Assembly: GCA_964396175.1 (NCBI GenBank)
Contig: CAYNEK010000026.1
Span: 37,361-58,047, forward strand
Direction of reading: 5' to 3'
From: an uncultured Polyangiaceae bacterium
GTDB taxonomy: Bacteria > Myxococcota_A > Polyangia > Polyangiales > Polyangiaceae
Length of the DNA stretch: 20,687 nucleotides
The position numbers and the translations under genes are program-made. Shown in pieces: positions 2,747-20,687 of this stretch. The notes beneath the pieces are model-generated. The model worked only from the letters and a program-made list of their open reading frames with translations. It had not been told where the DNA came from and ran no database searches. Each line of letters begins with the position of its first letter. Position 1 is the first letter of the stretch.

Positions 2747-4696
2747 ATGACGATCTCCGATCCTCGGCTCCGGCAGCTCCGCGACGAGCTCGCGCGCTCG
2801 ACGGTGGACGGGACCAGCAGGGTCGTCTTCCACCTCCGGGAGCTGCTCGGCGAGGGAGGGCAGGGTTGGGTGTACCGCGCCAGCTACGACGACCCGGACG
2901 GTCCGCCGATGGTCGTGAAGCTGCTTCGCCCGGACGTCGTATCGAACGACGCGCTCGCCCGGTTCCTCCGCGAGGCGGAGGTGCTGAAGAAGCTGTCCAC
3001 CCTGGCCCCGTCCCCGAGCCTCATCCGCTTCTTCGATCACGGGATCCACCGGATCACGATGCCGGACCGAGAGGCATACTCGATGCCGTTCATCGCCCTC
3101 GAGTATGTGCAAGGCACGAACCTGCAGAAGATCCTGGCCGAGCAGCCCGGCAAGGGGCTCCCGGCGGGGCGCACAAGGAGGCTCTTGCGCCAGATCGTCC
3201 GCGCCGTCTCGATGGTGCACGGCGCGCAGATCGTCCACCGAGACATCAAGCCATCGAACATCCTCGTCACGACCGAGGCGGGCGTCGAGGTGGCGAAGCT
3301 CACCGATTTCGGGCTCGTCAAGCGCTACGATATCGATGTCCGCGGCACCTTGATGATGGCCGGCGCGAGCACCGGCTACGCGCCGCCGGAGCAGTTCGAG
3401 GCCGGGAACAAGCGCGTCTCGGCGCGCACGGACGTCTTCTCGCTCGCCGCGGTGACGTACGAGTGTCTGACGGCGAGCGCCGCGTTCCCCGTCGCCGCTG
3501 CCGAGAGCGGGCTCCTCGTGCTGTCTCGCATGCTCTCCGGGGAGCGCCCCACGCTCGCCGCGAGCGGCACCACGTTGGCGCCCGAGCTCGCGGGGCGCGC
3601 GGATCTGATCGCCGCCATCGACCGCGAGCTCACCCGCGCGCTCTCAGCCGATCCCGATCAGCGACACGCCACGGTCGAGGAGCTCTGGGCTGCCATCGAG
3701 GAGTCGCTCCGGCAGGCCGAGCGCCCGTTCGGGTCGACCGCGCGCCTCGCGGCGGGTCCCCGCTCGAAGGCCCCTGGATCAGCGCCGTCGGCGGCCGCCG
3801 TGGCCCCGGTGACCCGCGCGCCCGACGTGCGCGTCGTCAGCTCGAGCCTCTTGCCCGAGACGGCGCGCGCGATCGCCTTCGCGCCCGACGGCCACACTGC
3901 CTACGCGCTCGGTCGGACCGCGCTCTTCCGCTTCCGGGGCGGGGTCTGGGCCCACGTGGTGCTCCCCGCGGGCTTCGACACGGCGGCGCTCACGGGCCTG
4001 CTCGTCTCGCCCGCGGCGGAGGTCGTGCTCTTCGGGCAGCGCGGCGCGCTCTTCGGGCTCTCGCCAGACGGCTCGCTGCGCCCGTGGGCCGCGGCGGATC
4101 CCGATCTGTCCTGGGTCGGCGGCGTGGTCGAGCGGAGCGAGATCCTCCTCGTCGGGACGAGCGCGATCCGCCGGGTGCCCGTCGTGGGGATCCTCCGGCA
4201 GGGCGGATCGCTCTCGACGGCGACGGTCGAGGGCTCTTCGCGCCTCCTCGCCGCGACGCGGCTCGAGAGCGGAAACATCCTCGCGTGCGGAGAGGCGGGT
4301 GAGCTCGCGGTGCTCGGCGCCGGACCCGCGCGCGGCCTCCCGTGGGGCCGGACGGGGCACCTCTTCGCGCTCGCGAGGACCGACGACGGTGTGCACATCG
4401 TCGGCACTGGCGGCCACGCGCTCCTCGTCGCCCGCGATCTCGGCGTGCGGCTCGAGCCCGTCCAGACGACGCGCGACCTCTTCTGCGTGACGGCGGAGGG
4501 AGGCCAGGTGCTCGCCGGAGGCACCGAGGGTCGCCTCGTCCGACGCACCCCCTCGGGCTGGACCCGCGTCCCTTTGCCGAAGGAGGCGACGGGCACCGTC
4601 CGCGCCATCACGATCGGCGACACGCACTTCACCTGCGCGCACGACGATGGCCTCGTCGTCGCCGGGAGGCTGGACGCCCTCGCACAGCGGGCGTGA
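2747..4696 (+). CDS. Hanks-type (eukaryotic-like) Ser/Thr protein kinase with a roughly 330-aa C-terminal Gly/Ala/Val/Leu-rich, beta-rich repeat region, possibly a beta-propeller. Start chosen at ATG 2747 (MTISDPRLRQ...); the track ORF begins further upstream at 2534.
   Basis: Gly-loop GEGGQGWVY, VAIK-like MVVKLL, catalytic loop HRDIKPSNIL, DFG (TDFGLV), APE-like GYAPPEQ. The start sits about 25 aa before the G-loop. Confidence 0.85.
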   Translation: MTISDPRLRQLRDELARSTVDGTSRVVFHLRELLGEGGQGWVYRASYDDPDGPPMVVKLLRPDVVSNDALARFLREAEVLKKLSTLAPSPSLIRFFDHGIHRITMPDREAYSMPFIALEYVQGTNLQKILAEQPGKGLPAGRTRRLLRQIVRAVSMVHGAQIVHRDIKPSNILVTTEAGVEVAKLTDFGLVKRYDIDVRGTLMMAGASTGYAPPEQFEAGNKRVSARTDVFSLAAVTYECLTASAAFPVAAAESGLLVLSRMLSGERPTLAASGTTLAPELAGRADLIAAIDRELTRALSADPDQRHATVEELWAAIEESLRQAERPFGSTARLAAGPRSKAPGSAPSAAAVAPVTRAPDVRVVSSSLLPETARAIAFAPDGHTAYALGRTALFRFRGGVWAHVVLPAGFDTAALTGLLVSPAAEVVLFGQRGALFGLSPDGSLRPWAAADPDLSWVGGVVERSEILLVGTSAIRRVPVVGILRQGGSLSTATVEGSSRLLAATRLESGNILACGEAGELAVLGAGPARGLPWGRTGHLFALARTDDGVHIVGTGGHALLVARDLGVRLEPVQTTRDLFCVTAEGGQVLAGGTEGRLVRRTPSGWTRVPLPKEATGTVRAITIGDTHFTCAHDDGLVVAGRLDALAQRA

Positions 4697-4902: not shown

Positions 4903-5364
4903 ATGAGAGCCGTAATGATGGGCGACCGCCTTCTCGCGTCGACAGCGGCTCTGGCGGCGTGTGCGGCGCTCGTGTCGCCGGGCGCGTCCCCCGCGCGGGA
5001 GCTCGAGGCGCGTCTCCGCGCGGCCGCCGACGAAGACCCGATGGGGACGATGGCGACGGCGCTGCTCCTCGGCGGCGCGATCTTCTTCGCCGCCGAGCGC
5101 GGGGAGAACCCCAAGGTCACCTCCTTCGCCGACGCGCTCTATTTCGTCTCCACGAGCATGAGCGTCGGCTACTCGGACATCTTCCCGCGCACCGAGGCGG
5201 GCAAGCTCCTCTCGACGGTCCTCGCGGCGCTCGGGCCCGCGCTGACGGCCCGCGCGCTCGCCGACGCCAAGGCCCCCACGCGCGAGGACGACCGCGACGC
5301 CGCCCTGCTCGCCAAGCTCGACGAGATCCTGGTCGCGCTGAAGGACAGGCCCCAAGCGCCATGA
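4903..5364 (+). CDS. Small (153 aa) KcsA-like single-pore cation channel subunit (2 TM plus pore helix). The selectivity filter reads SVGYSD rather than TVGYGD. The stop TGA (5362-5364) overlaps the next gene's ATG as ATGA.
   Basis: GGAGG 7 nt upstream of ATG 4903. TM1 MATALLLGGAIFFAAE, pore FADALYFVSTSMSVGYSDIFP, TM2 GKLLSTVLAALGPALTA. Confidence 0.75.
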   Translation: MRAVMMGDRLLASTAALAACAALVSPGASPARELEARLRAAADEDPMGTMATALLLGGAIFFAAERGENPKVTSFADALYFVSTSMSVGYSDIFPRTEAGKLLSTVLAALGPALTARALADAKAPTREDDRDAALLAKLDEILVALKDRPQAP

Positions 5365-6152
5365 CGGAGCTCCTCCGCCTGGCGACCACCTTCCCGACGG
5401 TGGTCTTCACGGTGCTCGTCGGCGTCGTCCTCGTCTACTGGGCGTTCGTCATGCTGGGCGCGCTCGAGCTCGACGCGCTCGGCGGCGCCCACCACGCGCA
5501 CCTCGGCGACGTGGGGCACGACCTCGGTGACGTGGGCCACGGGCTCTTGCACGGGGGCCACGACGTCGGCTGCGCCGCACACGGCGCCCTGGACGCCGGA
5601 CACGACGTCGGAGACGCGAGCGACGGGGACACGCACGGCGACCACGGAGGCCAGGCGGCGCACGCCGCACACAGCGCCGGGCTGCTCGAGGCGCTGCGTC
5701 TGCGCTCCGCGCCGGTCACCGTCGTCGCGAGCCTCGTCGTCGTCTTCGCGTGGCTCGCGTCCGCGCTCCTCTCGTCGTGGTTCGGCTCGCCCCTCTGGCT
5801 CGCCCGCGCCGCGATCTTCGCGGGCTCCTTCGTCTTTGGCGTCCTCGCGACGTCGGTCGCGGTCCGCCCGCTCGCGCGGCTCTTCGTCACGCGCAAGGCG
5901 CGCGGCAACGCAGATCTCGTGGGGAAGGTGTGCGTCGTGCGCACCGGCGAGGTGACCGAGAGCTTCGGCGAAGGGGTCCTCGACGAGGGCGGCGCCTCGC
6001 TCGTCCTCCGCATCCGCCTCTCGGAGGGCGAGAGGCTCGCGCGCGGCGAGGAGGCGCTCATCCTCGAGTGGGACGCGCGCCGCGAGGCGTTCTTGGTCGC
6101 GCCCTTCGGGGACGTCCTCGCGCGCTCGGAGCGGCGCCCACCCAAGCGCTGA
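5361..6152 (+). CDS. YqiJ/NfeD-like inner-membrane protein: N-terminal TM helix, a His/Asp/Gly-rich repetitive loop ((L)GDVGH(D/G) repeats), further TM helices, and a C-terminal soluble beta (OB-fold-like) domain. It is the typical partner of flotillin/SPFH proteins.
   Basis: MTELLRLATTFPTVVFTVLVGVVLVYWAFVML (TM); HHAHLGDVGHDLGDVGHGLLHGGHDVG...GHDVGD; TMs VTVVASLVVVFAWLASALL / AAIFAGSFVFGVLATSVAV; C-terminal GKVCVVRTGEVTESFGEGVLDEGGASLVLRIRL. Architecture matches E. coli YqiJ-type NfeD short homologues; position immediately upstream of a flotillin gene. Confidence 0.75.
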   Translation: MTELLRLATTFPTVVFTVLVGVVLVYWAFVMLGALELDALGGAHHAHLGDVGHDLGDVGHGLLHGGHDVGCAAHGALDAGHDVGDASDGDTHGDHGGQAAHAAHSAGLLEALRLRSAPVTVVASLVVVFAWLASALLSSWFGSPLWLARAAIFAGSFVFGVLATSVAVRPLARLFVTRKARGNADLVGKVCVVRTGEVTESFGEGVLDEGGASLVLRIRLSEGERLARGEEALILEWDARREAFLVAPFGDVLARSERRPPKR

Positions 6153-6322: not shown

Positions 6323-8194
6323 ATGCCCAACATCCTCCCCATTCTCGTCGTCGTGGGCGTCCTCGCCTTCGTGCTGCTCGGCGTCATCACGCTCGTCAGC
6401 CGGTTTTATCGGCAGGTCGACCAGGGCAAGGCGCTCATCATCAACACGCTCCGCTCCGAGCCGGTCGTCACCTTCACGGGGGCGGTCGTCTACCCGGTCA
6501 TCAACCGCGCCGAGGTGATGGACATGTCCGTCAAGATCATCGAGATCGATCGACGCGGGAAGGAGGGGCTCATCTGCAAGGACAACATCCGCGCCGACAT
6601 CAACGTCAACTTCTTCGTGCGGGTGAACAAGACCGAGGAGGACGTCCTCAAGGTCGCGCAGTCCATCGGCTGCCAGCGCGCCTCCGACCCGGCGACGCTC
6701 TCGTCGCTCTTCGCCGCGAAGTTCTCCGAGGCGCTGAAGACCGTCGGCAAGCACTTCGACTTCCAAGAGCTCTACAAGATGCGCGAGGAGTTCAAGGACC
6801 AGATCATCAAGGTGATCGGCAAGGATCTCAACGGGTACATCCTGGACGACGCGGCCATCGACTACCTCGAGCAGACGCCGCTCGAGTCGCTCGATCGCAA
6901 CAACATCATGGACGCCGAAGGCATCCGAAAGATCACGGATCTCACCGTCGTACAGAACCTCCAGACCAACGAGCTCCGCCAGAAGGAGCGCATGGAGACC
7001 GGCAGCCAGAACCTGAACGCCGACGAGGCGATCTTCCGTTTCGAGCAGCGGCGCGCCGAGGCGGAGGCCAAGAAGAACAAGGAGATCGCCGTCGCTCAGG
7101 CCCGCGAGGAGAACGAGGGCGCGCGCATCGCGAGCGAGGAGCAGAAGAAGACCGCGCTCGTCTACGAGAAGAACCAGGAGGAGGCGCTCGTCGCCGCCGA
7201 GACGAAGACGCGCGGCGTCGCCATCGCCCAGAAGAACCGCGAGCGCGAGATCGGCGTCGAGGAGGAGCGCGTGCAGAAGGCCCGGCAGCTGGAGGCCATC
7301 CAGCGTGAGCGCGAGGTCGCCCTCGTCAGCATCGCCAAGGAGAAGGACGTCGAGGTCGAGAAGAAGGCCATCGCCGACGTCATCCGCGCCCGCATCGCCG
7401 TCGACAAGACCGTCGCGACCGAGGAGGAGAGCATCAAGGATCTCCGCACCGTCGCCCAGGCGACCCGCGAGAAGGACGTCATCCGCCTCGCCGCCGAGGC
7501 CCGCGCCGAGGAGATCCGCGTCCGCACCGTGAAGTCCGCCGAGGCCGAGGAAGAGGCCGCGAAGTTCGAGGCGCGGAAGAGGGTCTTGCTCGCGGACGCC
7601 GAGCTCGAGACCGCCGACAAGACCGCGCGGGCGAAGCAGCGGCTCGCCGAGGGCATCCAGGCCGAAGAGGCCGCCTCCGGGCTCGCGAAGGCCCGCGTCC
7701 GCGAGGCCGAGGCGGTCGCGATCGAGAAGACCGGGCAGGCAGAGGCCTCCGCCCTCCGCGAGCGCATGGTCGCCGAGGCCGAGGGCCTCACCCAGAAGGC
7801 CAACGCGATGCACGCGCTCGACGCGGCCGGCCGCGGCCACGAGGAGTTCCGCCTCCAGATCGAGAAGGAGAAGGCGGTCGATCTCCGCGCGCTCGACGTG
7901 AAGAAGGAGCTCGCGGTCGCTCAGGCCGAGGTGCTCGGCAAGACCCTCGGCAACGCGAAGATCCAGATCATGGGTGGGGACGGGCAGTTCCTCGAGCGCT
8001 TCGTGAAGGCCGTGTCGGTCGGCCAGTCGATCGACGCCTTCGTCGACGAGAGCAAGACCGTGCAGGGGATGCTCGCCGAGGTCGTGAAGGAGGGCTCCCC
8101 CGCCGCGAAGAAGGTCGCCGAGGTCCTGCGCACCGTCGCCGAGGCCGATCCGAAGCTCCGCGCGAAGCTCGGTGAGACCCCCGCCGATCGATGA
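6323..8194 (+). CDS. Flotillin family (SPFH/Band-7, YqiK/FloT-like) protein, 623 aa: N-terminal TM anchor, SPFH domain, long Ala/Glu/Lys/Arg-rich coiled-coil flotillin region. Start chosen at ATG 6323 (MPNILPILVVVGVLAFVLL...). Its stop overlaps the next gene's start as ATGA (8191-8194).
   Basis: TM MPNILPILVVVGVLAFVLLGVITLV. SPFH core KALIINTLRSEPVVTFTGAVVYPVINRAEVMDMSVKIIEIDRRGKEGLICKDNIRADINVNFFVRVNK. EA-rich heptad region from about aa 240 to 520. C-terminal KIQIMGGDGQFLERF. Confidence 0.88.
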   Translation: MPNILPILVVVGVLAFVLLGVITLVSRFYRQVDQGKALIINTLRSEPVVTFTGAVVYPVINRAEVMDMSVKIIEIDRRGKEGLICKDNIRADINVNFFVRVNKTEEDVLKVAQSIGCQRASDPATLSSLFAAKFSEALKTVGKHFDFQELYKMREEFKDQIIKVIGKDLNGYILDDAAIDYLEQTPLESLDRNNIMDAEGIRKITDLTVVQNLQTNELRQKERMETGSQNLNADEAIFRFEQRRAEAEAKKNKEIAVAQAREENEGARIASEEQKKTALVYEKNQEEALVAAETKTRGVAIAQKNREREIGVEEERVQKARQLEAIQREREVALVSIAKEKDVEVEKKAIADVIRARIAVDKTVATEEESIKDLRTVAQATREKDVIRLAAEARAEEIRVRTVKSAEAEEEAAKFEARKRVLLADAELETADKTARAKQRLAEGIQAEEAASGLAKARVREAEAVAIEKTGQAEASALRERMVAEAEGLTQKANAMHALDAAGRGHEEFRLQIEKEKAVDLRALDVKKELAVAQAEVLGKTLGNAKIQIMGGDGQFLERFVKAVSVGQSIDAFVDESKTVQGMLAEVVKEGSPAAKKVAEVLRTVAEADPKLRAKLGETPADR

Positions 8195-11100
8195 CCGACG
8201 AGGCGAAGCCCGCCGAGCCCGCCCAGAAGGCCGCGTCGGACAGCGGGGGAGGCTCGGTCCTGCGCCGTCGGCGAGAGGCCGCCGCGCGCGAGGTGCTCGA
8301 GAAGGCCCGGGCGCTCGACGAGAAGCGGAAGGGCCTCTTCGGCGGCCAGGAGCAGAAGTTGCTCGGCGTCACGCGGACGCGCACGGAGCAAAACGCCGTG
8401 CCGCGAGACATGGCGCGGGTCGGCGAGACGATCCTCGTCGGGTACGAGGTCTTCCTCGGTCTGTCACGCGAGATCGACGTCGCCCAGGTCTTCGGGCTGA
8501 GCCAGCTCCTCCAGGCGGACGGCGGCTTCGAGCTGTCCCCGGTGCCCATCGCGTCGCACGCGCCTTACCTCGCCGACGAGGCCTTCGTCCGCGACTTCAC
8601 GAGCACCTTCCGCTACGCGACGGGCGCGCGGGTCACGGAGCTTCGCCGCACGGACGAGCGGCTCCTCGTCGTCGTGCGGTCCGGTCGAGACGACGCGGAT
8701 CGCAAGGTCTTCCGCTGGGTCATCGACGGCAAGGGCAACGTCAAGTACCTGGACGCGCGCGGAGAGGAGGATCTCACTCCGCCAGCGGCGCACCCCTTCG
8801 CGTGGAAGCAGACGACGCGCGACGATCAGGTCGGCGGGAAGTTCCCGCACATCGCGATCGACGACACGCTCTTCGTCGAGACGATCGGCGGCGACCTCAC
8901 CGTCAAGATCGAGAACAACACCACGACCGGGCTCGGCGTCTACTCGGAGCCCGTCGACGACCCGAACCAGACGCTCGATGACGCGGACATCGCGTGGGCC
9001 AAGGTGGGCGGGCTCTACGTCGTCAAGCTGCGGCCCTTCCGCGAGACGGTCACGCGCTACCTCGTCTTCGATCCCATCACGAGGTCCATCCGCCGCGTCG
9101 ACGCGCTCGGCGTCGCGTGCCTGCCGCTCCCGGAGGACCAGGGGCTCATCTTCCCGGGCGGGCTCGCCCTGCGCGGGGTCGGGGCCAAGGTGCTCGACGG
9201 CGTCCCGTCGGATCTCATCCCCATCGCGCGCGTCGCGTCGCCCAACGGCGAGGACGTGCTCTTCGCCTTCTTCCGCGAGAAGGACGGGCTCTACCTCCTC
9301 CTCCCGTACAACGCGCTCCGCAAAGAGCTCGCGCCAGCGATCGTCTGTCACGGCTACACGCTCCTCGACGACGGGACGCTCCTCTCCTTCCGCGCAGGGG
9401 ACGAGCCGGCGCGCGTCCACCCCGTGCAGGTCTGGCAGACGCCCTTCGGCTCGGCGGACGCCGAGGCCGATCGACCGCTCACCGGGAGCTTCCTCGAGAA
9501 GATCGGCAACCGCGATCTCGTGCGCGGCCTCGCCGACGCGCTCTCGGTCGGCAAGGCGGGGCTCGTGTGCGACACGCGCGAGCGGCTCCTCGAGCTGGTC
9601 CGCGCCGTCGGGCGCGCCGCCGACTCCCACCACTGGCTCGGCCACGCCGAGGCCGGGGATCTGCTCTCGTCGCTCGTCGCGCTCCGGAGCGCCGCCGAGG
9701 CCGCGATGGACGAGATCGAGCGCGATCTCGCCCTCGCGCGTGAGGCCGAGGCAGAGACCGCGAAGATTGAGGCGGCGATCGAGGCCGGCCTCCACGACCA
9801 CGCACCCGAAGCGCTCCGCGATCTCGACGCGGTCACCAAGGCGCTCGTCTTCGTGCGCTCCCAGCGCGGCAAGCTCGTCGCGCTCGGCGAGCGGCGCGGC
9901 GCGTCCAAGGAGCGCCTCGTCGCGGCGCTCGAGCGGCTGAAGGAGCACGAGGCCGGCGTCAGCAAGACGGCGGCGAGCTTCCTCGCCGAGGGCGAGGCGT
10001 TCGCCCCGCTCTTGAAGGGTTTCGACGCGCTCGAGCGCGAGGCCCAGGGGGTGACGACCGTGCTCGGGCTCGCGCCGCTCCGCGAGGCGCTCGATCGCGG
10101 CGCCGAGGGGCTCGTCGCGTTGCAAGAGCTGTCGGCGGGGCTCGCCGAGGACGACGCGCCGCTGCGGACCAAGATCGCCCAGGGGCTCGGCCACGCGCTC
10201 GCCGCGAAGAACCGCGCCGACGCCGTGCTCACGGGGCGGCGCCGCGAGCTAGCGATGGCGGAGGGGCGCGCCGAGCTCGCCGCCGAGCTCTCGCTCTTTG
10301 GACAAAACGCCGCGGCCGAGGTCGCCCAAGCCGACAGCCCCGAGGCCTGCGACGCCGCGATCGCCCGGCTCGGCACGACGCTCGCGACGATCGAGGCTCG
10401 CTTCGCCGAGCTCGTCGATCTGCTCCCCGGCGTCGAGGAGAAGCGCGAGGAGGCCGTCCGCGCCCTCTCCGACAAGAAGAAGCGGCTCGTCGAGGAGCGC
10501 GCGCGTCGCGCCGAGGCGCTCTTCGAGGCGGCGTCGCGCCTGTCGAAGGTGGTGCTCGAGAAGGCGAAGTCGCTCCCCGAGGCCGACGCCCTGCACGGCT
10601 TCTTCGCCGCCGATCCGATGGTCGAGAAGCTCCGCGGCCAGATCCGCGCGCTCGCCGCGCTGGGTGATGGCGTGCGGTCGGCGGAGCTCGAGACGCGGCT
10701 CGCGGAGGCGAAGGAGGAGGCGTTCCGCGCGCTCCGTGATCGGGCGGATCTCTTCGAGGACGGGCAGCGGCTCATCCGGCTCGGGGCGGCGCGCTTCCTC
10801 GTGCACGAGGGCAAGCCCGAGCTGGTGCTCGTCCCGCGCGGCGATGGGGTCTCGGCGCACGTGCTCGGCACCGATCTCTACGTCCCGGTGCGTGACGAGG
10901 CGCTCGTCCGCGAGCGCGCGCTCTTCGCGTGGGAGGTGCCGTCCGAGACGCCCACGATGGCGCGCGCGGCGTTCCTTGCGGGCTCGCTCCTGCTCGCGCG
11001 AGGAATCCTCACGCCCGTCGACGACTCCGCCATCGACGATCTCGTCCGCGAGGCGGCGATGGCGCGGCTCGACCAAGGCTACGATCGCGGCGTCCACGAC

Positions 11101-13587
11101 GTCGACGCGGCCGCGATCTTCCGCGCGCTCGTCGGCGTCGCGAAGCTCGGCGGGCGGCTCCTCCACCGGCCCGACGTCCGCGCCTTCGCGTGCATGTTCT
11201 TCGCGGGCCTCGCGCCCGAGGCGCGCGAGCCGTGGGTGGTGCGCAGCCGGAGCGCAGGACGGCTCACGCGCACCTACGGCGCCTACGACGCCGAAGAGCA
11301 GCTCGCGAGGGAGCTCTCGGGCGCGCTCCGTGAGGCCGCGGCGTCGCTCGGGTTCGATCCTTCGCTCGCCGAGGAGGCCGCCACGTACCTCGTGGTCGAG
11401 CTCGGTCTCGACGAGCTTCGCTTCGTCCTCTCTGGAGAGGCCTCGGCGCTCTCGCAGGCGCTCCTCGCCGATCTCGACACGCGCGGGGCGCGACGCGCCT
11501 TCGAGGCGGATCTCCGCGCGCTCGACGCGCGCCCGAAGGATCGCCTCGAGGTGGCCGAGAGCCACGTGCGCGCCTTCCTCGCGGCGCGAGAGGACTCCGA
11601 GCACACGCGCTGGGCGAAGGAGGCGGCCGTGTCGCTCGCGACGCCGCGCCTGTCTCGCGCCGTCTCGTCCGCGCGGACCGCCTTCGCCGTCGAGGGGTTG
11701 CTCTCGCTCCACCCGACCATCGAGGGGCGCGCGCTGCGCGGCTACGCGGACGAGCTGCTCGCCGAGGTGCGGCGCCACGAGCGCGACGATCTCCCGAGGT
11801 TCCGCGCCTTCGCCGCGAAGAAGGGCGAGGTGCTGGCGAGCGAGGAGAAGCGGCTCGGGACCAAGGCGTTCGCGCCGCGGGTGCTCTCGACCTTCGTCCG
11901 CAACCAGCTCGTCGACGAGGTCTACCTCCCGCTCATCGGGAAGAACCTCGCGAAGCAGATCGGCGCCGTGGGCGACGGGGCGCGCACCGATCGCATGGGC
12001 CTGCTCATGCTGCTCTCGCCGCCCGGGTACGGCAAGACGACGCTCCTCGAGTACGTCGCCGACCGGCTCGGTCTCGTCTTCGTCAAGGCGAACGGCCCGT
12101 CCCTCTCGTCGAAGACGACCTCGCTCGATCCCGCCGCGGCGCCCGATCGCACCGCGCGCGAGGAGGTGCAGAAGATCGCGCTCGCCCTCGAGATGGGGAA
12201 CAACGTGATGCTCTGCCTCGACGACATCCAGCACACGAGCCCCGAGCTGCTCCAGCGCTTCGTGTCGCTCTGCGACGGGCAGCGGCGCATCGAGGGCGTC
12301 TTCGACGGCGAGCCGCGGACCTGGGACTTGCGCGGCAAGCGCTTCTGCGTGGTGATGGCCGGCAACCCCTACACCGAGTCGGGCGAGCGCTTCCGCGTGC
12401 CCGACATGCTGGCCAACCGCGCCGACACCTACAACCTCGGCGACGTGCTCGAGGGGCGCCGCGAGGTCTTCGAGCGCTCGTACATCGAGAACGCGCTCGC
12501 CTCGCACCCGCTCCTCGCGCCGCTCACCGGCCGCACGCGCGGCGATCTCGACAGGCTGCTCCGGCGCGCGGCGGGCGAGGAGATCGCGGTGTCGGCCTTC
12601 GATCATGCCTTCGGCGAGGCCGAGGTGGCCGAGCTCGAGGCGCTCCTCCGGCACATGATCCGCGTCGAGAAGACGCTCCTCATGGTGAACGAGGCGTACG
12701 TGCGCTCGGCGTCGCAGGCGGACGCGTACCGGACGAGCCCGCCCTTCAAGCTCCAGGGCAGCTACCGCAACATGGCGAAGATCGCGGACAAGCTCTCGCC
12801 CGCCATGACGGCCGAGGAGGTCGAGCGGGTGATCGACGATCACTACGCGAGCGAGTCCCAGACGCTCACGCAGAGCGCGGAGGAGAACCTGCTCGCCCTC
12901 CGCGAGCTGCGCGGGCGCCTCGACGAGAAGGGCAAGGCGCGGCTCGAGGCGATCCGGGCGGCCTTCGTGCGGCGTGTGCGTCAGGGCGGCGCCGAGGCCG
13001 ATCCGGCGACGCGCGTGACCGGCGGGCTCGAGGGGATCGAGACGGAGCTCGCGAGCCTCGGCAAGACACTGACGACGCTCGCGCAGCCCAAGGAGGCTCC
13101 TCCCGCGGCGCCCGCCACCGACGGCGCGCTGAACCTCGCGATGAGGGAGCTCGCCGTCTTGGAGCAGCTCGTCCAGAACATGCCCCCGCCCGCGACCGCC
13201 GCCGCCAGCGACCCGCGAATCGACGAGATCTCCGCGGCGATCCGGCGGGTCGAGGCGTCGTTCTTCACACTGCCGCGCGGCGAGACGACGGACATCGAGC
13301 TCGGCCCCGCGACGGAGTCGAACTTTTACGACGGCATGGGCGGGGTCTTCGTGGACGGCGGGGTCTTCGTCGCGACGTACGCGAAGGCGCCCGCGGTGGG
13401 GGCGCGGGTGTCCTTGCGGCTGGCCTTCCCGGACGGCGTCGTCGAGGCGAGCGGGATCGTCGCGTTCGTGCGCGAGATGCTCGCGGGGGGTGGGATCCCT
13501 GGGTACGGGGTGCGGCTCGCCGAGACGCCGGAGCTTCGAGCGCGGGTCGAGCACTTCACGAGGCTCCGAGCGCCCGACGTCGTGTGA
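8191..13587 (+). CDS. Giant (1798 aa) multidomain protein, translationally coupled to the flotillin gene. It has an N-terminal roughly 450-aa globular region of unknown function and extended Ala/Glu/Leu/Arg-rich coiled coils (about aa 480-1000). A MoxR-class AAA+ ATPase module sits at about aa 1260-1420 (Walker A SPPGYGKTT, Walker B VMLCLDD, sensor region FCVVMAGNPYTESGERFRVPDMLANRA). A PilZ-like domain (TIGR02266-type) forms the C-terminus.
   Basis: Uninterrupted ORF with strong GC3 bias. P-loop at nt about 12019-12045; Walker B at about 12214-12235. The NPxxExG...LPDxLxxRx signature resembles MoxR/AAA_3-AAA_5. The C-terminus has FYDGMGGVFVDGGVFV...GARVSLRLAFPDGVVEASGIVAFV...GYGVRL, like PilZ beta-barrel strands ending in a G-hydrophobic-G motif. 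Confidence 0.8.
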   Translation: MTDEAKPAEPAQKAASDSGGGSVLRRRREAAAREVLEKARALDEKRKGLFGGQEQKLLGVTRTRTEQNAVPRDMARVGETILVGYEVFLGLSREIDVAQVFGLSQLLQADGGFELSPVPIASHAPYLADEAFVRDFTSTFRYATGARVTELRRTDERLLVVVRSGRDDADRKVFRWVIDGKGNVKYLDARGEEDLTPPAAHPFAWKQTTRDDQVGGKFPHIAIDDTLFVETIGGDLTVKIENNTTTGLGVYSEPVDDPNQTLDDADIAWAKVGGLYVVKLRPFRETVTRYLVFDPITRSIRRVDALGVACLPLPEDQGLIFPGGLALRGVGAKVLDGVPSDLIPIARVASPNGEDVLFAFFREKDGLYLLLPYNALRKELAPAIVCHGYTLLDDGTLLSFRAGDEPARVHPVQVWQTPFGSADAEADRPLTGSFLEKIGNRDLVRGLADALSVGKAGLVCDTRERLLELVRAVGRAADSHHWLGHAEAGDLLSSLVALRSAAEAAMDEIERDLALAREAEAETAKIEAAIEAGLHDHAPEALRDLDAVTKALVFVRSQRGKLVALGERRGASKERLVAALERLKEHEAGVSKTAASFLAEGEAFAPLLKGFDALEREAQGVTTVLGLAPLREALDRGAEGLVALQELSAGLAEDDAPLRTKIAQGLGHALAAKNRADAVLTGRRRELAMAEGRAELAAELSLFGQNAAAEVAQADSPEACDAAIARLGTTLATIEARFAELVDLLPGVEEKREEAVRALSDKKKRLVEERARRAEALFEAASRLSKVVLEKAKSLPEADALHGFFAADPMVEKLRGQIRALAALGDGVRSAELETRLAEAKEEAFRALRDRADLFEDGQRLIRLGAARFLVHEGKPELVLVPRGDGVSAHVLGTDLYVPVRDEALVRERALFAWEVPSETPTMARAAFLAGSLLLARGILTPVDDSAIDDLVREAAMARLDQGYDRGVHDVDAAAIFRALVGVAKLGGRLLHRPDVRAFACMFFAGLAPEAREPWVVRSRSAGRLTRTYGAYDAEEQLARELSGALREAAASLGFDPSLAEEAATYLVVELGLDELRFVLSGEASALSQALLADLDTRGARRAFEADLRALDARPKDRLEVAESHVRAFLAAREDSEHTRWAKEAAVSLATPRLSRAVSSARTAFAVEGLLSLHPTIEGRALRGYADELLAEVRRHERDDLPRFRAFAAKKGEVLASEEKRLGTKAFAPRVLSTFVRNQLVDEVYLPLIGKNLAKQIGAVGDGARTDRMGLLMLLSPPGYGKTTLLEYVADRLGLVFVKANGPSLSSKTTSLDPAAAPDRTAREEVQKIALALEMGNNVMLCLDDIQHTSPELLQRFVSLCDGQRRIEGVFDGEPRTWDLRGKRFCVVMAGNPYTESGERFRVPDMLANRADTYNLGDVLEGRREVFERSYIENALASHPLLAPLTGRTRGDLDRLLRRAAGEEIAVSAFDHAFGEAEVAELEALLRHMIRVEKTLLMVNEAYVRSASQADAYRTSPPFKLQGSYRNMAKIADKLSPAMTAEEVERVIDDHYASESQTLTQSAEENLLALRELRGRLDEKGKARLEAIRAAFVRRVRQGGAEADPATRVTGGLEGIETELASLGKTLTTLAQPKEAPPAAPATDGALNLAMRELAVLEQLVQNMPPPATAAASDPRIDEISAAIRRVEASFFTLPRGETTDIELGPATESNFYDGMGGVFVDGGVFVATYAKAPAVGARVSLRLAFPDGVVEASGIVAFVREMLAGGGIPGYGVRLAETPELRARVEHFTRLRAPDVV

Positions 13588-13860: not shown

Positions 13861-15978
13861 CTACGGTGTCTGCGCCGTCACGTCCGCCGTCACCACCCCC
13901 TCCGGTCGTGGCGTCGCCTCACCCTCCTCACACGCCGGCAACACCACGCGGAAGCTCGAGCCGCGATCGAGCTGGGTCGTCACCTCGATCGCCCCCCCAG
14001 CCGCCTCCACGATCCGCTGCGAGATCGCGAGACCGAGCCCCGTGCCGCGGGGCTTCGTCGTGAAAAAGGGCATAAAGAGGCTCTTCTCGACGGACGGCGC
14101 CATCCCGGGCCCCTCGTCCGTCACCGCGATCTCGACCGACGCCCGTCCCGCCTGCTCCCCGAAGGCGCGCGACAGGACCCGCCCGCGCGACGAGATGGTC
14201 ACCATCCCGCGACCTCCCATCGCCTGCTGCGCGTTCTGCACGAGGTTCAAGATCACCTGGCGGAGCTTCTCGGGATCGATGCGCACCATGGGCAAGTCAT
14301 CGGCAAGATCGGCCGTGACCTCGATGCCCGCGAGGTCGGGCGTGAGGATCTGCAGCGTGCGACGAAGGACGCCGTTCGCGTCGATGGGTGGGGACGGGCC
14401 GGCGGGCGGACGCGCGTAGTCGAGGACGTTCGTGACGACGGTGTTCAGCCGATCGACCTCTTCGAGGATGACGCCGAGCAGATCCTTCGTCCCGAGGTCG
14501 AGGGGCTTGCCCTCCTCGGGATCGGCGAGCAGCTCCGCCGCGCCCTTGATCGCGCCGAGCGGGTTCTTGATCTCGTGCGCGAGGCCCGCGGAGAGCTGCC
14601 CGAGCGCCGCCAGACGATCCTTGATCTTGAGGCGGACGAACGCGCGCGAGTTTTCGAGCGCCACCGTGAGCTGCGCGGCGAGCGCGTCGAGCAAGCCGAC
14701 GTCCTCCGGCGAGAACGCGTCGCGGACGCGCACGTCGGCGATGACCCACAGCCCGACCGGCTCGCGCGGATCTCCGAGCGTGAAGATCACGCCCTCGGCG
14801 AGCGGTCCGAGCGTGCCGGCCGCCGCGAGGATCCCTGCGACCGCCGCCTCCCCACGCTCGTCACGCTCGCGCAGCACCTCGTCGAGGACGACGGGCCCTC
14901 GAGCCCGCGCCCGCTCGAACAGCGGCGCGAGGGCCGCGATCTCGACGAGCCGGGGCGGCTCGCACCCCGCCGCGAGGCTGAGATCGAAGGTGACGCCGTC
15001 GGGCGCGCGGAGGTAGAGCGCGGCCCCGGTGATCCGCCGCGACGCGGTGAGGCCCACCGTGACGATCGTCGCGATCTGGTCCACCTCGACCGCGCGCGCG
15101 AGCCGCCCGCGCACGTCGTGGGCCGTCTGCTCGAGATCGAAGCGCTCGCGGAAGAAGGTCCGATGGATCTGCTCCTCGACCCTCTGCCGCATCGGCTCGA
15201 AGAGGACGAGCACGACGACCGCCGCGAGGATGGCGTTCAGGTACATCGTCGAGAAGCGCCCGATGACCGTGACGCAGAGGTAGAAGATCCCCGCGAGCAA
15301 GAAGGCGAGCAGCGTCGCGACGACGATGCGCCCGAAGAGCTCGTAGAGGCCGAGGAGCCGCTCCTCGATGAGCGCCTGCGCGATCGCGAACAGGAAGATC
15401 ACCGACAGGGCCGATCCCACCGGCGGCAGCTCCGCGCCGATGAACCACAAGAACTCGGCGAGGCTCGTCCCGAGCGCGAGCGCGCCCGTCGTCACCAGGT
15501 ACTGGACGCGGCGCTTGATGGCCCGCGACGTCGAGCGCTGCCCTCGACGTGCAAGCGCGTAGAGCCCCGCCGCGAAGAACCCGCCGACATACGCGTACAC
15601 GATCCCACGCGCCCAGCCCTGCCCGTGCCAGTCCGAGAGCACGAGCAGCGTGACCGGGATCGCGATGAACATCGCCGCACGTCGCAGCCGGGGTGGCACG
15701 CTGCGGGGCGTCGGGAGGATCGCCTCGAAGAGCTCGAGCGACAGGATCGGCAAGAAGACCGACAGGATCGCCGTGAAGCGCGCCCAGATGCTCGCCTGGA
15801 AGAAGCCATAGAGCGCCTGCGCCGAGTACCAGAGCGCGAGATCTGCAGCGAAGAGCGAGAAGACGACGTGCGACCGGCGCGACCGCGCACGGAGCAGCAC
15901 CGCCCCCGCGATGGCGAGCGCGAGCGCGGCGCAGAGGACGAGGGTTCTCTTGCGGACGTCGGAGCCGAAGTCGACCAC
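13861..15978 (-). CDS. Sensor histidine kinase, 705 aa: N-terminal polytopic membrane domain (about 8 TM), GAF-like domain, HisKA dimerisation/phosphoacceptor domain, and HATPase_c. The start is probably GTG at 15978.
   Basis: H-box LAHEIKNPLGAIKGAAELL; N-box LNLVQNAQQA; G1 DEGPGM; G2 GTGLGLAIS. Hydrophobic N-terminus (LVLCAALALAIAGAVLL, FIAIPVTLLVL, IVVATLLAFLLAGIFYL etc.). Confidence 0.88.
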   Translation of the reverse strand: MVDFGSDVRKRTLVLCAALALAIAGAVLLRARSRRSHVVFSLFAADLALWYSAQALYGFFQASIWARFTAILSVFLPILSLELFEAILPTPRSVPPRLRRAAMFIAIPVTLLVLSDWHGQGWARGIVYAYVGGFFAAGLYALARRGQRSTSRAIKRRVQYLVTTGALALGTSLAEFLWFIGAELPPVGSALSVIFLFAIAQALIEERLLGLYELFGRIVVATLLAFLLAGIFYLCVTVIGRFSTMYLNAILAAVVVLVLFEPMRQRVEEQIHRTFFRERFDLEQTAHDVRGRLARAVEVDQIATIVTVGLTASRRITGAALYLRAPDGVTFDLSLAAGCEPPRLVEIAALAPLFERARARGPVVLDEVLRERDERGEAAVAGILAAAGTLGPLAEGVIFTLGDPREPVGLWVIADVRVRDAFSPEDVGLLDALAAQLTVALENSRAFVRLKIKDRLAALGQLSAGLAHEIKNPLGAIKGAAELLADPEEGKPLDLGTKDLLGVILEEVDRLNTVVTNVLDYARPPAGPSPPIDANGVLRRTLQILTPDLAGIEVTADLADDLPMVRIDPEKLRQVILNLVQNAQQAMGGRGMVTISSRGRVLSRAFGEQAGRASVEIAVTDEGPGMAPSVEKSLFMPFFTTKPRGTGLGLAISQRIVEAAGGAIEVTTQLDRGSSFRVVLPACEEGEATPRPEGVVTADVTAQTP

Positions 15979-16358: not shown

Positions 16359-16359
<1 letters not shown>
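15997..16359 (-). CDS. Small (120 aa) Pro/Ala/Asp-rich lipoprotein with a lipobox signal peptide (MRLAGPLLVLLALLVGGC) and an internal duplicated KPEPDPW motif. Its ATG overlaps the stop of the upstream EBP gene (TGATG), and it ends 19 nt before the histidine kinase start.
   Basis: Lipobox L-V-G-G-C after a hydrophobic h-region and an N-terminal Arg. GGAGG about 10 nt upstream of the ATG, inside the EBP 3' end. The track ORF 15997..16971 is in this frame, but only the last 120 codons are non-overlapping and credible. Confidence 0.6.
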
Positions 16360-19872
<3,513 letters not shown>

Positions 19873-19895
<23 letters not shown>

Positions 19896-20687
19896 GGCGT
19901 GATGCCCACGCCTCGAGGTAGAGCTGCTGGTACGCGAGCGCCGCGCGATCCCAGCCGAAGGGCTGACCCATCGCTGCCGCGCGCATCTTCGCGAGATCGT
20001 GCGCGCGCTCGTGGAACACGTGCGCGGCCTGGCCCATCGTGTCGAGGAGCGCGCGCGGCGACGGCTCGTGGAAGACGAACCCCGTACCCCTCCCCGTCGC
20101 GCCGTCGTAGCCCCACACCGTGTCGGCGAGCCCGCCCGTCGCGCGGACGATGGGGAGCGTCCCGTACCGCAGGCTGTACATCTGGTTCATCCCGCAGGGC
20201 TCGTAGCGCGACGGCATCACGAAGAAATCCGCCCCCGCCTCGATGCGGTGCGCGAGCCCGTCGTCGAAGCGGAGCGCCGCCCGCAGCCTGTCCCCACGCA
20301 TCGCCGCCGCCGCGCCGAACGCGCGCTCGAGCCCAGGATCGCCGCTGCCGAGGACGACGAGCTGGACGTCCGCGTCGAGCAAGGTGGGGAGGATCGAGAC
20401 GAGGAGGTCCATCCCCTTCTGGCTCGTCAGCCGTGTCACGACGCCGAAGAGCGGCACGTCCGCGCGCTCGGGGAGCCCGACCTCGCGCTGGAGAGCCGCC
20501 TTGCACCCCGCCTTGCCGCGCATGTCCTCGGCGGAGTAGCGCGCCGGGAGGTGCGGATCGGTCGCTGGGTCCCACACGCGCTCGTCGACGCCGTTCAAGA
20601 TCCCGACGAGGTCGCTGGCCCGCGCGCGCACGACGCCGTCGAGGCCCGCGCCCTGCTCGCGCGTCTGGATCTCACGCGCGTAGGTCG
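19873..20687 (-). CDS. glgA: Glycogen synthase (ADP-glucose-type GT5), C-terminal roughly 270 aa only. The gene continues beyond the right edge of the window, so its N-terminus is missing.
   Basis: [13 protein letters not shown]..., VVLGSGDP..., [36 protein letters not shown]: the conserved GlgA C-terminal motif block. Confidence 0.85.

Follow-up and report, generated by a model that had tools for sequence, protein, structure and literature searches.

The giant ATPase gene

The stretch of DNA analysed here, referred to as the window, comprises 20,687 nts of contig CAYNEK010000026.1 from an uncultured Polyangiaceae bacterium (assembly GCA_964396175.1, positions 37,361 to 58,047 of the forward strand). 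Its subject is a gene encoding a giant ATPase, which lies on the + strand at 8191..13587 and runs from ATG to stop to give a product of 1798 amino acids (aa) with the domain order DUF3686, DUF7902, AAA+ module and PilZ-like domain. The gene is the third of a triad, in which a gene for a YqiJ/YuaF-like membrane protein is followed by that for a YqiK-type flotillin and then by the giant ATPase gene.

The open reading frame (ORF) had been put forward in an earlier note, which was made from the DNA letters and a list of ORFs, and both its coding signal and its homologues show it to be a genuine gene. GC content at codon position 3 is 0.90-0.99 along the full length of the ORF and position 2 is the lowest, as expected for a + strand gene at 72% GC. 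The GC content of the window as a whole is about 72%, with long ORFs occurring by chance on both strands, and the giant ATPase gene casts a shadow ORF of 1101 aa on the other strand (10249-13554). Gene calls were taken from a 14.5-kb Logan contig, relative to which the window is offset by 107 bases; the aligned stretch is identical in the two, and the giant gene of the Logan contig gives an identical protein. A database record identical to the 1798-aa protein also exists. In total 1505 homologues of the giant ATPase were found, and the best 120 of the 1505 span 89-100% of the query. The best listed full-length homologues share 43-50% identity with it, and the closest non-identical database match is about 46-50% identical. 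The protein is cytosolic, and no transmembrane (TM) segment was detected in it by a sequence scan. Downstream of the gene neither an intrinsic terminator nor a sigma-70 consensus was found.

The beta-propeller and the helical arm

Two AlphaFold2 models were built from 30-sequence alignments, one covering residues 1-1150 (mean predicted local distance difference test score, pLDDT, 82) and the other residues 1100-1798 (mean pLDDT 78). Residues 36-481 (8296..9633, + strand) match Pfam DUF3686 (PF12458) with E = 8.3e-152 and 506.2 bits against a cut-off of 25, the match extending over profile positions 3-448 of 448. This is the N-terminal region of roughly 450 residues in which the earlier note recognised no motif; it had also described the region as beta-rich, and this is what the model shows. 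Following an N-terminal helix, an all-beta part (residues 56-416) forms roughly six or seven four-stranded blades, with pLDDT mostly 80-94. When the beta region was used as a query in Foldseek it matched propellers, including DCAF1 WD40, Elp1, IFT-A, the clathrin N-terminal domain and prolyl-oligopeptidase.

The propeller is followed by a region of long helices (residues 420-854; 9448..10752, + strand, by AlphaFold2 secondary structure), the individual helices being 20-58 residues in length and rich in Ala, Leu, Glu and Arg. Within this region lies DUF7902 (PF25472; residues 602-686, 9994-10248, + strand), matched with E = 3.7e-13 and 49.9 bits against a cut-off of 26. The models then place a small beta domain (residues 861-899) and a second helical domain (residues 903-1230), which together are encoded at 10771..11880 on the + strand; no Pfam match was found for residues 861-1230. 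The helical middle of the protein, which had been described as a coiled coil of about 500 residues, is therefore present in the models, but it is longer, at about 800 residues (420 to about 1230), and is broken by the beta domain at 861-899. The idea of a protocoatomer-like protein, in which a propeller is joined to a solenoid and to which the clathrin and IFT-A matches relate, was tried and rejected: the TM-scores do not exceed about 0.2, and the helices are very long.

The AAA+ module

The alpha/beta core of the AAA+ module was delimited by the AlphaFold2 model and its motifs to residues 1239-1415 (11905..12435, + strand). Walker A (SPPGYGKTT, with K1282) occupies residues 1276-1284, nts 12016-12042, which agrees to within about 10 nts with the P-loop that had been placed at 12019-12060, and the previously reported Walker B was likewise found, as LCLDDIQH at residues 1341-1348 with D1344 and D1345. 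Sensor 1 is N1392 in the region VVMAGNP (1387-1393), and R1410 in MLANRAD (1406-1412) is a candidate arginine finger. These four elements do not vary among 30 homologues. Walker B has DD and not DE throughout the family, as judged from the 30-sequence alignment, and this is unusual.

A beta-hairpin is predicted at residues 1366-1379, between Walker B and sensor 1, in the pre-sensor-1 position. The hallmarks of MoxR AAA+ proteins (clade 7) were taken to be a helix-2 insert and a pre-sensor-2 insert that repositions the lid. In the model the helix-2 position (1302-1319) is a conserved loop of 18 residues, not a hairpin. The core is followed by the helical lid and post-AAA region (residues 1416-1597; 12436..12981, + strand, from the model and the alignment), in which the motif LQGSYRNM (1521-1528) is invariant, R1526 is a candidate sensor 2, and a 33-residue helix precedes the motif.

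A Foldseek search of the PDB with the P-loop segment gave 301 matches at E<=0.001, and among the matches listed all are AAA+ proteins, so that the fold that had been read from the P-loop is upheld. The Pfam searches are consistent with this. When the segment was searched in isolation, AAA_5 (PF07728, dynein-related) matched near end-to-end with 27.3 bits against a cut-off of 22, and PF00004 scored about the same, mainly over the first half; neither AAA_3 (PF07726) nor CbbQ_C was matched by this isolated segment. On the whole protein the generic AAA models of Pfam match weakly, at residues 1272-1395, and NCBIfam gave only sub-threshold matches to the RuvB P-loop.

The nearest solved structures to the module are CbbQ and NorQ, both from the CbbQ/GvpN/NorQ group of the MoxR family, and the motif GNP...P..L.NR resembles that of MoxR. 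The AAA+ module belongs to the branch that holds CbbQ/NorQ and dynein/midasin, and for the fold the label MoxR-class, as given in the earlier note, is a fair one. The label holds for the fold and for the closest structures; it does not extend to the rest of what marks a MoxR protein, as this module is neither small nor stand-alone and has no VWA partner. The same evidence bears on whether the protein is a conventional MoxR chaperone that works with a VWA/MIDAS partner in metal-cofactor insertion or enzyme activation, as do the pairs CbbQ-CbbO, NorQ-NorD and RavA-ViaA. The structural neighbours and the MoxR-like motif would fit such a role. We nevertheless regard it as very unlikely, because a VWA domain was not found in the giant protein or in any of the window genes, the conserved neighbours are a flotillin and a YqiJ-like protein, the AAA_3 and CbbQ_C models are not matched, and the giant protein is about six times as large as a MoxR protein.

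The PilZ-like domain and variation at the C-terminus

After the lid, an Ala/Pro-rich linker of low confidence (residues 1598-1698; 12982..13284, + strand; pLDDT 34-64), which is poorly conserved and is modelled as disordered, leads to a PilZ-like beta-barrel (residues 1699-1792; 13285..13566, + strand). The barrel is modelled with pLDDT 85-91 and consists of six strands and a C-terminal helix. Taken on its own, the C-terminal domain of the window protein matches PF07238 with E = 0.2 and 12.4 bits, under the cut-off of 22.5. Nine of 11 orthologous C-terminal domains do however match this model (best 1.6e-8), and a profile of the domain family matches Xanthomonas PilZ structures in the PDB (4f48, 3dsg, 7lkq and 3cnr) with E values from 2.4e-6 to 1.5e-5. 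The PilZ-like C-terminus proposed previously is thus supported.

PilZ domains are the classical receptors of cyclic di-GMP (c-di-GMP), and the profile matches and predicted fold of the C-terminal domain raise the possibility of a c-di-GMP-controlled machine, in which the PilZ domain would switch the ATPase on and off. In the alignment of the 11 orthologous domains, however, the c-di-GMP motifs RxxxR and D/NxSxxG are absent, from the window protein as well as from its orthologues, and a c-di-GMP receptor role is therefore not to be assumed. What the alignment does keep is a pair of Gly residues (GG) and, in the majority of sequences, one Arg ahead of strand 1. The PilZ proteins of Xanthomonas and Pseudomonas, the former being the best PDB matches, are not known to bind c-di-GMP; they serve as adaptors that connect PilB with FimX.

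The distribution of the domain also argues against a switch of this kind. It is found only in Polyangia-type homologues; those of Myxococcus, Corallococcus, the Actinomycetota and other members, which make up most of the family, stop after the lid, so that the PilZ-like domain is not central to the core mechanism. In one homologue (P0003, 2511 aa; locus L084, 1012-8547) a Ser/Thr kinase follows the PilZ-like domain. Control of the ATPase by c-di-GMP is consequently considered unlikely, and the PilZ-like domain is most likely a lineage-specific add-on with a protein-docking or regulatory role and not a canonical c-di-GMP sensor.

Family identity and distribution

The earlier note could not name the architecture as that of a known family. 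It does correspond to one: the combination of Pfam DUF3686, DUF7902 and an AAA module, to which NCBI gives the name 'DNA repair ATPase', while some homologues carry the JGI label 'MoxR-like ATPase/Tfp pilus assembly protein PilZ'. The 1798-aa protein is a divergent member of this catalogued and functionally uncharacterised family, and the full-length match is accordingly to a family without a defined function and not to a characterised one. No paper mentioning DUF3686 or PF12458 was found in a literature search, nor was any experimental work on the family.

Using the family peptides MAGNPYTE and LQGSYRNM, which are invariant in 30 sequences, and counting one genome per species, a relative was identified in at least 595 genomes. 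The carriers come from the Myxococcota, the Actinomycetota and further phyla, and among them are Sorangium, Labilithrix, Myxococcus, Corallococcus, Cystobacter, Nannocystis, Nonomuraea, Amycolatopsis, Micromonospora, Streptomyces, Nocardiopsis, Acidimicrobiales and Acidobacteriota. Out of 1.84 billion, a search with the AAA+ and lid module retrieved only 826 representative clusters at E<=1e-3, of which 319 reach E<=1e-30, and in full-length representatives the module is located at about residues 1150-1660. The small number of clusters and the constant position of the module indicate that the family is discrete and its architecture fixed; family members are 1600-2126 aa in length.

The database name invites the explanation that the protein is a DNA-repair ATPase, such as a coiled-coil enzyme of the SMC/Rad50 kind that works on DNA. 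The names in NCBI, UniRef and Pfam all say DNA repair, the long helical region beside a P-loop is superficially SMC-like, and RuvB is among the Foldseek matches of the AAA+ segment. The P-loop domain is however a contiguous AAA+ domain, closest to CbbQ, NorQ, dynein and midasin, and not a split ABC-type head. Furthermore, the giant protein has no DNA-binding, nuclease, SMC or Rad50 domain from Pfam, its conserved neighbours are two membrane proteins and not repair genes, and the literature search found no experimental basis for the name. A role in DNA repair is highly improbable on this evidence, and 'DNA repair ATPase' is probably a misnomer.

The conserved triad

The flotillin gene directly upstream (6323..8194, + strand) encodes a YqiK-type flotillin (SPFH/Band 7) of 623 aa, which was assigned by hhalign to YqiK: the family profile aligns with that of E. 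coli YqiK at 99.5% probability (E = 2.9e-22), residues 16-210 against 20-215. PF01145 is matched by 11 of 20 close homologues of the flotillin (best 7.7e-10), whereas the window flotillin itself has no direct sequence match in Pfam or the PDB. An N-terminal TM anchor (residues 1-30) is followed in it by an SPFH domain and then by a long helical stretch rich in Glu and Ala, and its homologues are named 'YqiK' or 'SPFH domain-containing protein' in their sources. It shares 60% identity with the neighbour gene product in Sorangium and 86% with a database relative (P0126), against only about 46-50% for the best non-identical match of the giant ATPase. The TGA of the flotillin gene overlaps the ATG of the giant gene (ATGA), which suggests that the flotillin and the giant ATPase are translationally coupled.

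Upstream of the flotillin, a gene at 5361..6152 (+ strand; gene call, with assignment by hhalign to YqiJ) encodes a membrane protein of 263 aa of the YqiJ/YuaF type, which is a short NfeD-like protein. The protein begins with a TM segment, continues with a His/Gly/Asp-rich loop and further TM segments, and ends in a soluble beta domain. The family profile aligns with that of E. coli YqiJ at 81% probability (E = 1.2e-5) over 122 columns; plain BLASTP was not significant, and direct sequence searches of Pfam and the PDB gave no match for this protein. With the Sorangium protein in the equivalent position it shares 41% identity, and the order of the two genes, YqiJ-like then YqiK-like, is that of the yqiJK pair in E. 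coli. Imperfect 21-nt tandem repeats are present in the gene at 5500-5617 of the window and encode the His/Gly/Asp-rich loop (…HLGDVGHDLGDVGHGLLHGGHDVG…) between the first and the later TM segments. This loop might bind metal. The Sorangium orthologue has a Gly/Ala/Glu-rich repeat in its place.

The conservation of this arrangement was determined at 80 loci kept from the genome scan, of which 69 have at least 3.2 kb of upstream sequence. The flotillin gene is immediately upstream of the giant gene and on the same strand in 65 of these 69, and in 62 the YqiJ-like gene was also detected upstream of the flotillin by tblastn; it is present in Streptomyces (L072) too, a locus that has a Na+/H+ exchanger upstream of the triad. 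Loci with the triad span Sorangium, Myxococcus, Corallococcus, Nonomuraea, Amycolatopsis, Streptomyces and Acidimicrobiales. Between the loci, identities are 50-70% for the flotillin and 56-64% for the AAA module. When phyla are compared, the flotillin (about 50%) and the AAA module (about 58-60%) have changed far less than the propeller (about 45%) and the helical arm (about 35%). Clustering of the flanking ORFs of the 80 loci did not reveal a fourth conserved gene, the only large cluster being that of the actinobacterial YqiJ-like gene together with opposite-strand shadows. The operon with a flotillin and an NfeD-like protein is the most informative clue to the function of the giant ATPase.

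Other genes of the window

A small K+-channel-like gene (4903..5364, + strand) encodes 153 aa with an Ion_trans_2 domain (PF07885, E = 2.2e-12), in which SVGYSD takes the place of TVGYGD as the filter-like sequence. The gene shares 4 nts with the start of the YqiJ-like gene and is probably in an operon with the triad here, while lying outside the universally conserved triad. Channel homologues adjoin the triad in seven other loci of Polyangia or Kofleriaceae; in L004 and L045 the two have the same orientation, and in L008, L017, L030, L035 and L038 they are on opposite strands.

The channel gene bears on a further explanation, namely that the giant protein is the NTPase of an anti-phage or conflict system, a giant sensor that controls membrane effectors such as the flotillin and the channel. 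Systems of this type often hold giant multidomain NTPases with variable C-terminal add-ons (here PilZ-like or kinase) and membrane partners, and a small ion-channel gene is indeed in the operon here. On the other hand, PADLOC gave only a non-significant match to mad8 over the P-loop (E = 0.0067), typical effectors such as nucleases or toxins are not conserved near the gene in the 80 loci, and the triad is syntenic and conserved across whole phyla, so that it looks vertically inherited and of housekeeping type and does not resemble a variable defence island. A defence function is therefore thought to be quite improbable.

A Ser/Thr kinase gene of 649 aa (2747-4696, + strand, from the gene calls) lies upstream of the triad on the same strand. 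A specific relationship between its product and the kinase fused to the homologue P0003 was considered and rejected, as there is only generic similarity between the two (26% identity); a link between them would be suggestive at best. Converging on the giant gene from the other side is a gene for a GAF-containing histidine kinase of 705 aa (13861-15978, - strand), which is adjoined by one for a sigma-54 activator with TPR repeats (1178 aa; 16359-19895, - strand), and beyond the latter is a glycosyltransferase gene (19873-20631, - strand). None of the other loci examined showed this neighbourhood of histidine kinase, sigma-54 activator and glycosyltransferase. At the far end, positions 1-303 of the window contain two adjoining tandem arrays around the 3' end of an Fe-S/CCG oxidoreductase gene. 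The first has a 53-nt unit repeated 3.2 times (1-167, 94% matches) and the second a 73-nt unit repeated 2.1 times (149-303, 90% matches); the Logan contig begins within the first of these.

Proposed function

We propose, with moderate confidence, that the giant ATPase is an ATP-driven remodeller of flotillin/NfeD-like membrane assemblies; any specific activity that might be assigned to it is less likely than this overall reading. The single AAA+ module would probably assemble into a ring, given that it has a conserved arginine finger as in other single-module AAA+ proteins. Propeller-tipped helical arms could then dock on the cytoplasmic flotillin/NfeD-like assembly, and ATP hydrolysis would remodel this assembly, whether by building, opening or dismantling it or by extracting clients from it. 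Such remodelling may serve membrane or envelope homeostasis. Possible precedents are HflK/C-FtsH and, for the pulling of partner complexes by means of an adaptor domain, CbbQ, NorQ and midasin.

Several points weigh against the remodeller proposal. The link between the ATPase and the flotillin is one of gene order alone. The DD of Walker B means that robust ATP hydrolysis is not guaranteed. The giant-ATPase gene is found without an adjacent flotillin gene in four loci from some Sorangium, Labilithrix and other myxobacteria (L006, L009, L011 and L058), so the partnership with flotillin is not obligatory, at least for paralogues; these copies may be paralogues that have become separated from the triad. 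There is no PspA gene in the window. Finally, the giant ATPase is probably the 'beta-propeller + coiled-coil + AAA-ATPase' of PMC11237479, to which it was matched by domain order and operon partners only.

A more elaborate form of the remodeller proposal is put forward only tentatively. Here the protein would be a dedicated flotillin mechano-enzyme, a MoxR/midasin-like ring whose propeller-tipped arms open, assemble or dismantle flotillin/NfeD cages or pull clients out of them, with lineage-specific modules at the C-terminus (a PilZ-like adaptor, a Ser/Thr kinase) possibly tying this activity to signalling.

The biochemical role of bacterial flotillins is still debated, and if this more elaborate form is true the giant ATPase would be the first enzymatic partner for them. 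An ATPase that is coupled to a flotillin gene in at least two large phyla provides a handle on flotillin function. The near-universal link between the family and flotillins has been noted in the literature, and it is here that the main interest lies; the gain for this particular window is modest, since the family is already catalogued and mentioned in the literature. It also matters that the name 'DNA repair ATPase', which is probably misleading, is spreading to hundreds of genomes.

Comparison with known systems

Despite being the nearest structures to the AAA+ module, CbbQ and NorQ share only 13-16% sequence identity with it. They are stand-alone proteins of about 270 aa, whereas the module described here is set at residues 1239-1600 of a protein of 1798 aa, and it differs from them further in having no VWA/MIDAS partner, no CbbQ_C and the DD form of Walker B. 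Midasin (Rea1/Mdn1) and dynein have six concatenated AAA modules in each chain and the giant ATPase has a single one; in contrast to the terminal MIDAS domain of midasin and the microtubule-binding stalk of dynein, it has an N-terminal propeller and a C-terminal PilZ-like barrel. The C-terminal domain is similar to the PilZ proteins of Xanthomonas and Pseudomonas of the XAC1133/PA2960 type ('type IV fimbriae assembly protein') in its barrel and helix and in the missing c-di-GMP motifs. Those proteins are stand-alone, at about 117 aa, and are adaptors for the PilB ATPase and FimX, while here the domain forms the C-terminal part of a much larger AAA+ chain.

In HflK/C-FtsH an SPFH cage is paired with an AAA+ machine. 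The triad is alike in that an SPFH scaffold is genetically paired with an AAA+ ATPase, for which prohibitin and the m-AAA protease may also be compared, and an NfeD-type partner is present here, as in many SPFH operons. FtsH is however a membrane-anchored protease of the classical AAA clade, whereas the giant ATPase lacks both a TM segment and a protease domain, comes from another AAA+ branch, and is known to be paired with its flotillin from the genes alone. The biology of HflK/C-FtsH is given here partly after PMC13220708.

The closest comparison is with a group of operons described by Ravi et al. 2024 (PMC11237479), in which a 3TM protein typified by YqiJ/YuaF is among three components. These operons sometimes also contain CesT/Tir-PspA and phospholipase D, abbreviated operons without PspA being more widespread, and a chaperone-like role in membrane dynamics was suggested for them (PMC11237479). 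In Dokdonia the order given in the supplementary table of that paper is YqiJ/YuaF, then Band-7 + coiled-coil + flotillin, then beta-propeller + coiled-coil + AAA-ATPase. The gene order and domain layout of the window are exactly these. With the DUF3686 family the giant ATPase shares the domain order, the size class (1600-2126 aa), the peptides MAGNPYTE and LQGSYRNM, and two upstream partners in an identical order. As the operon in the window has no adjoining CesT/Tir-PspA pair it corresponds to the 'abbreviated' type, and the copy described here differs from the others in its PilZ-like domain and in the K+-channel-like gene within its operon.

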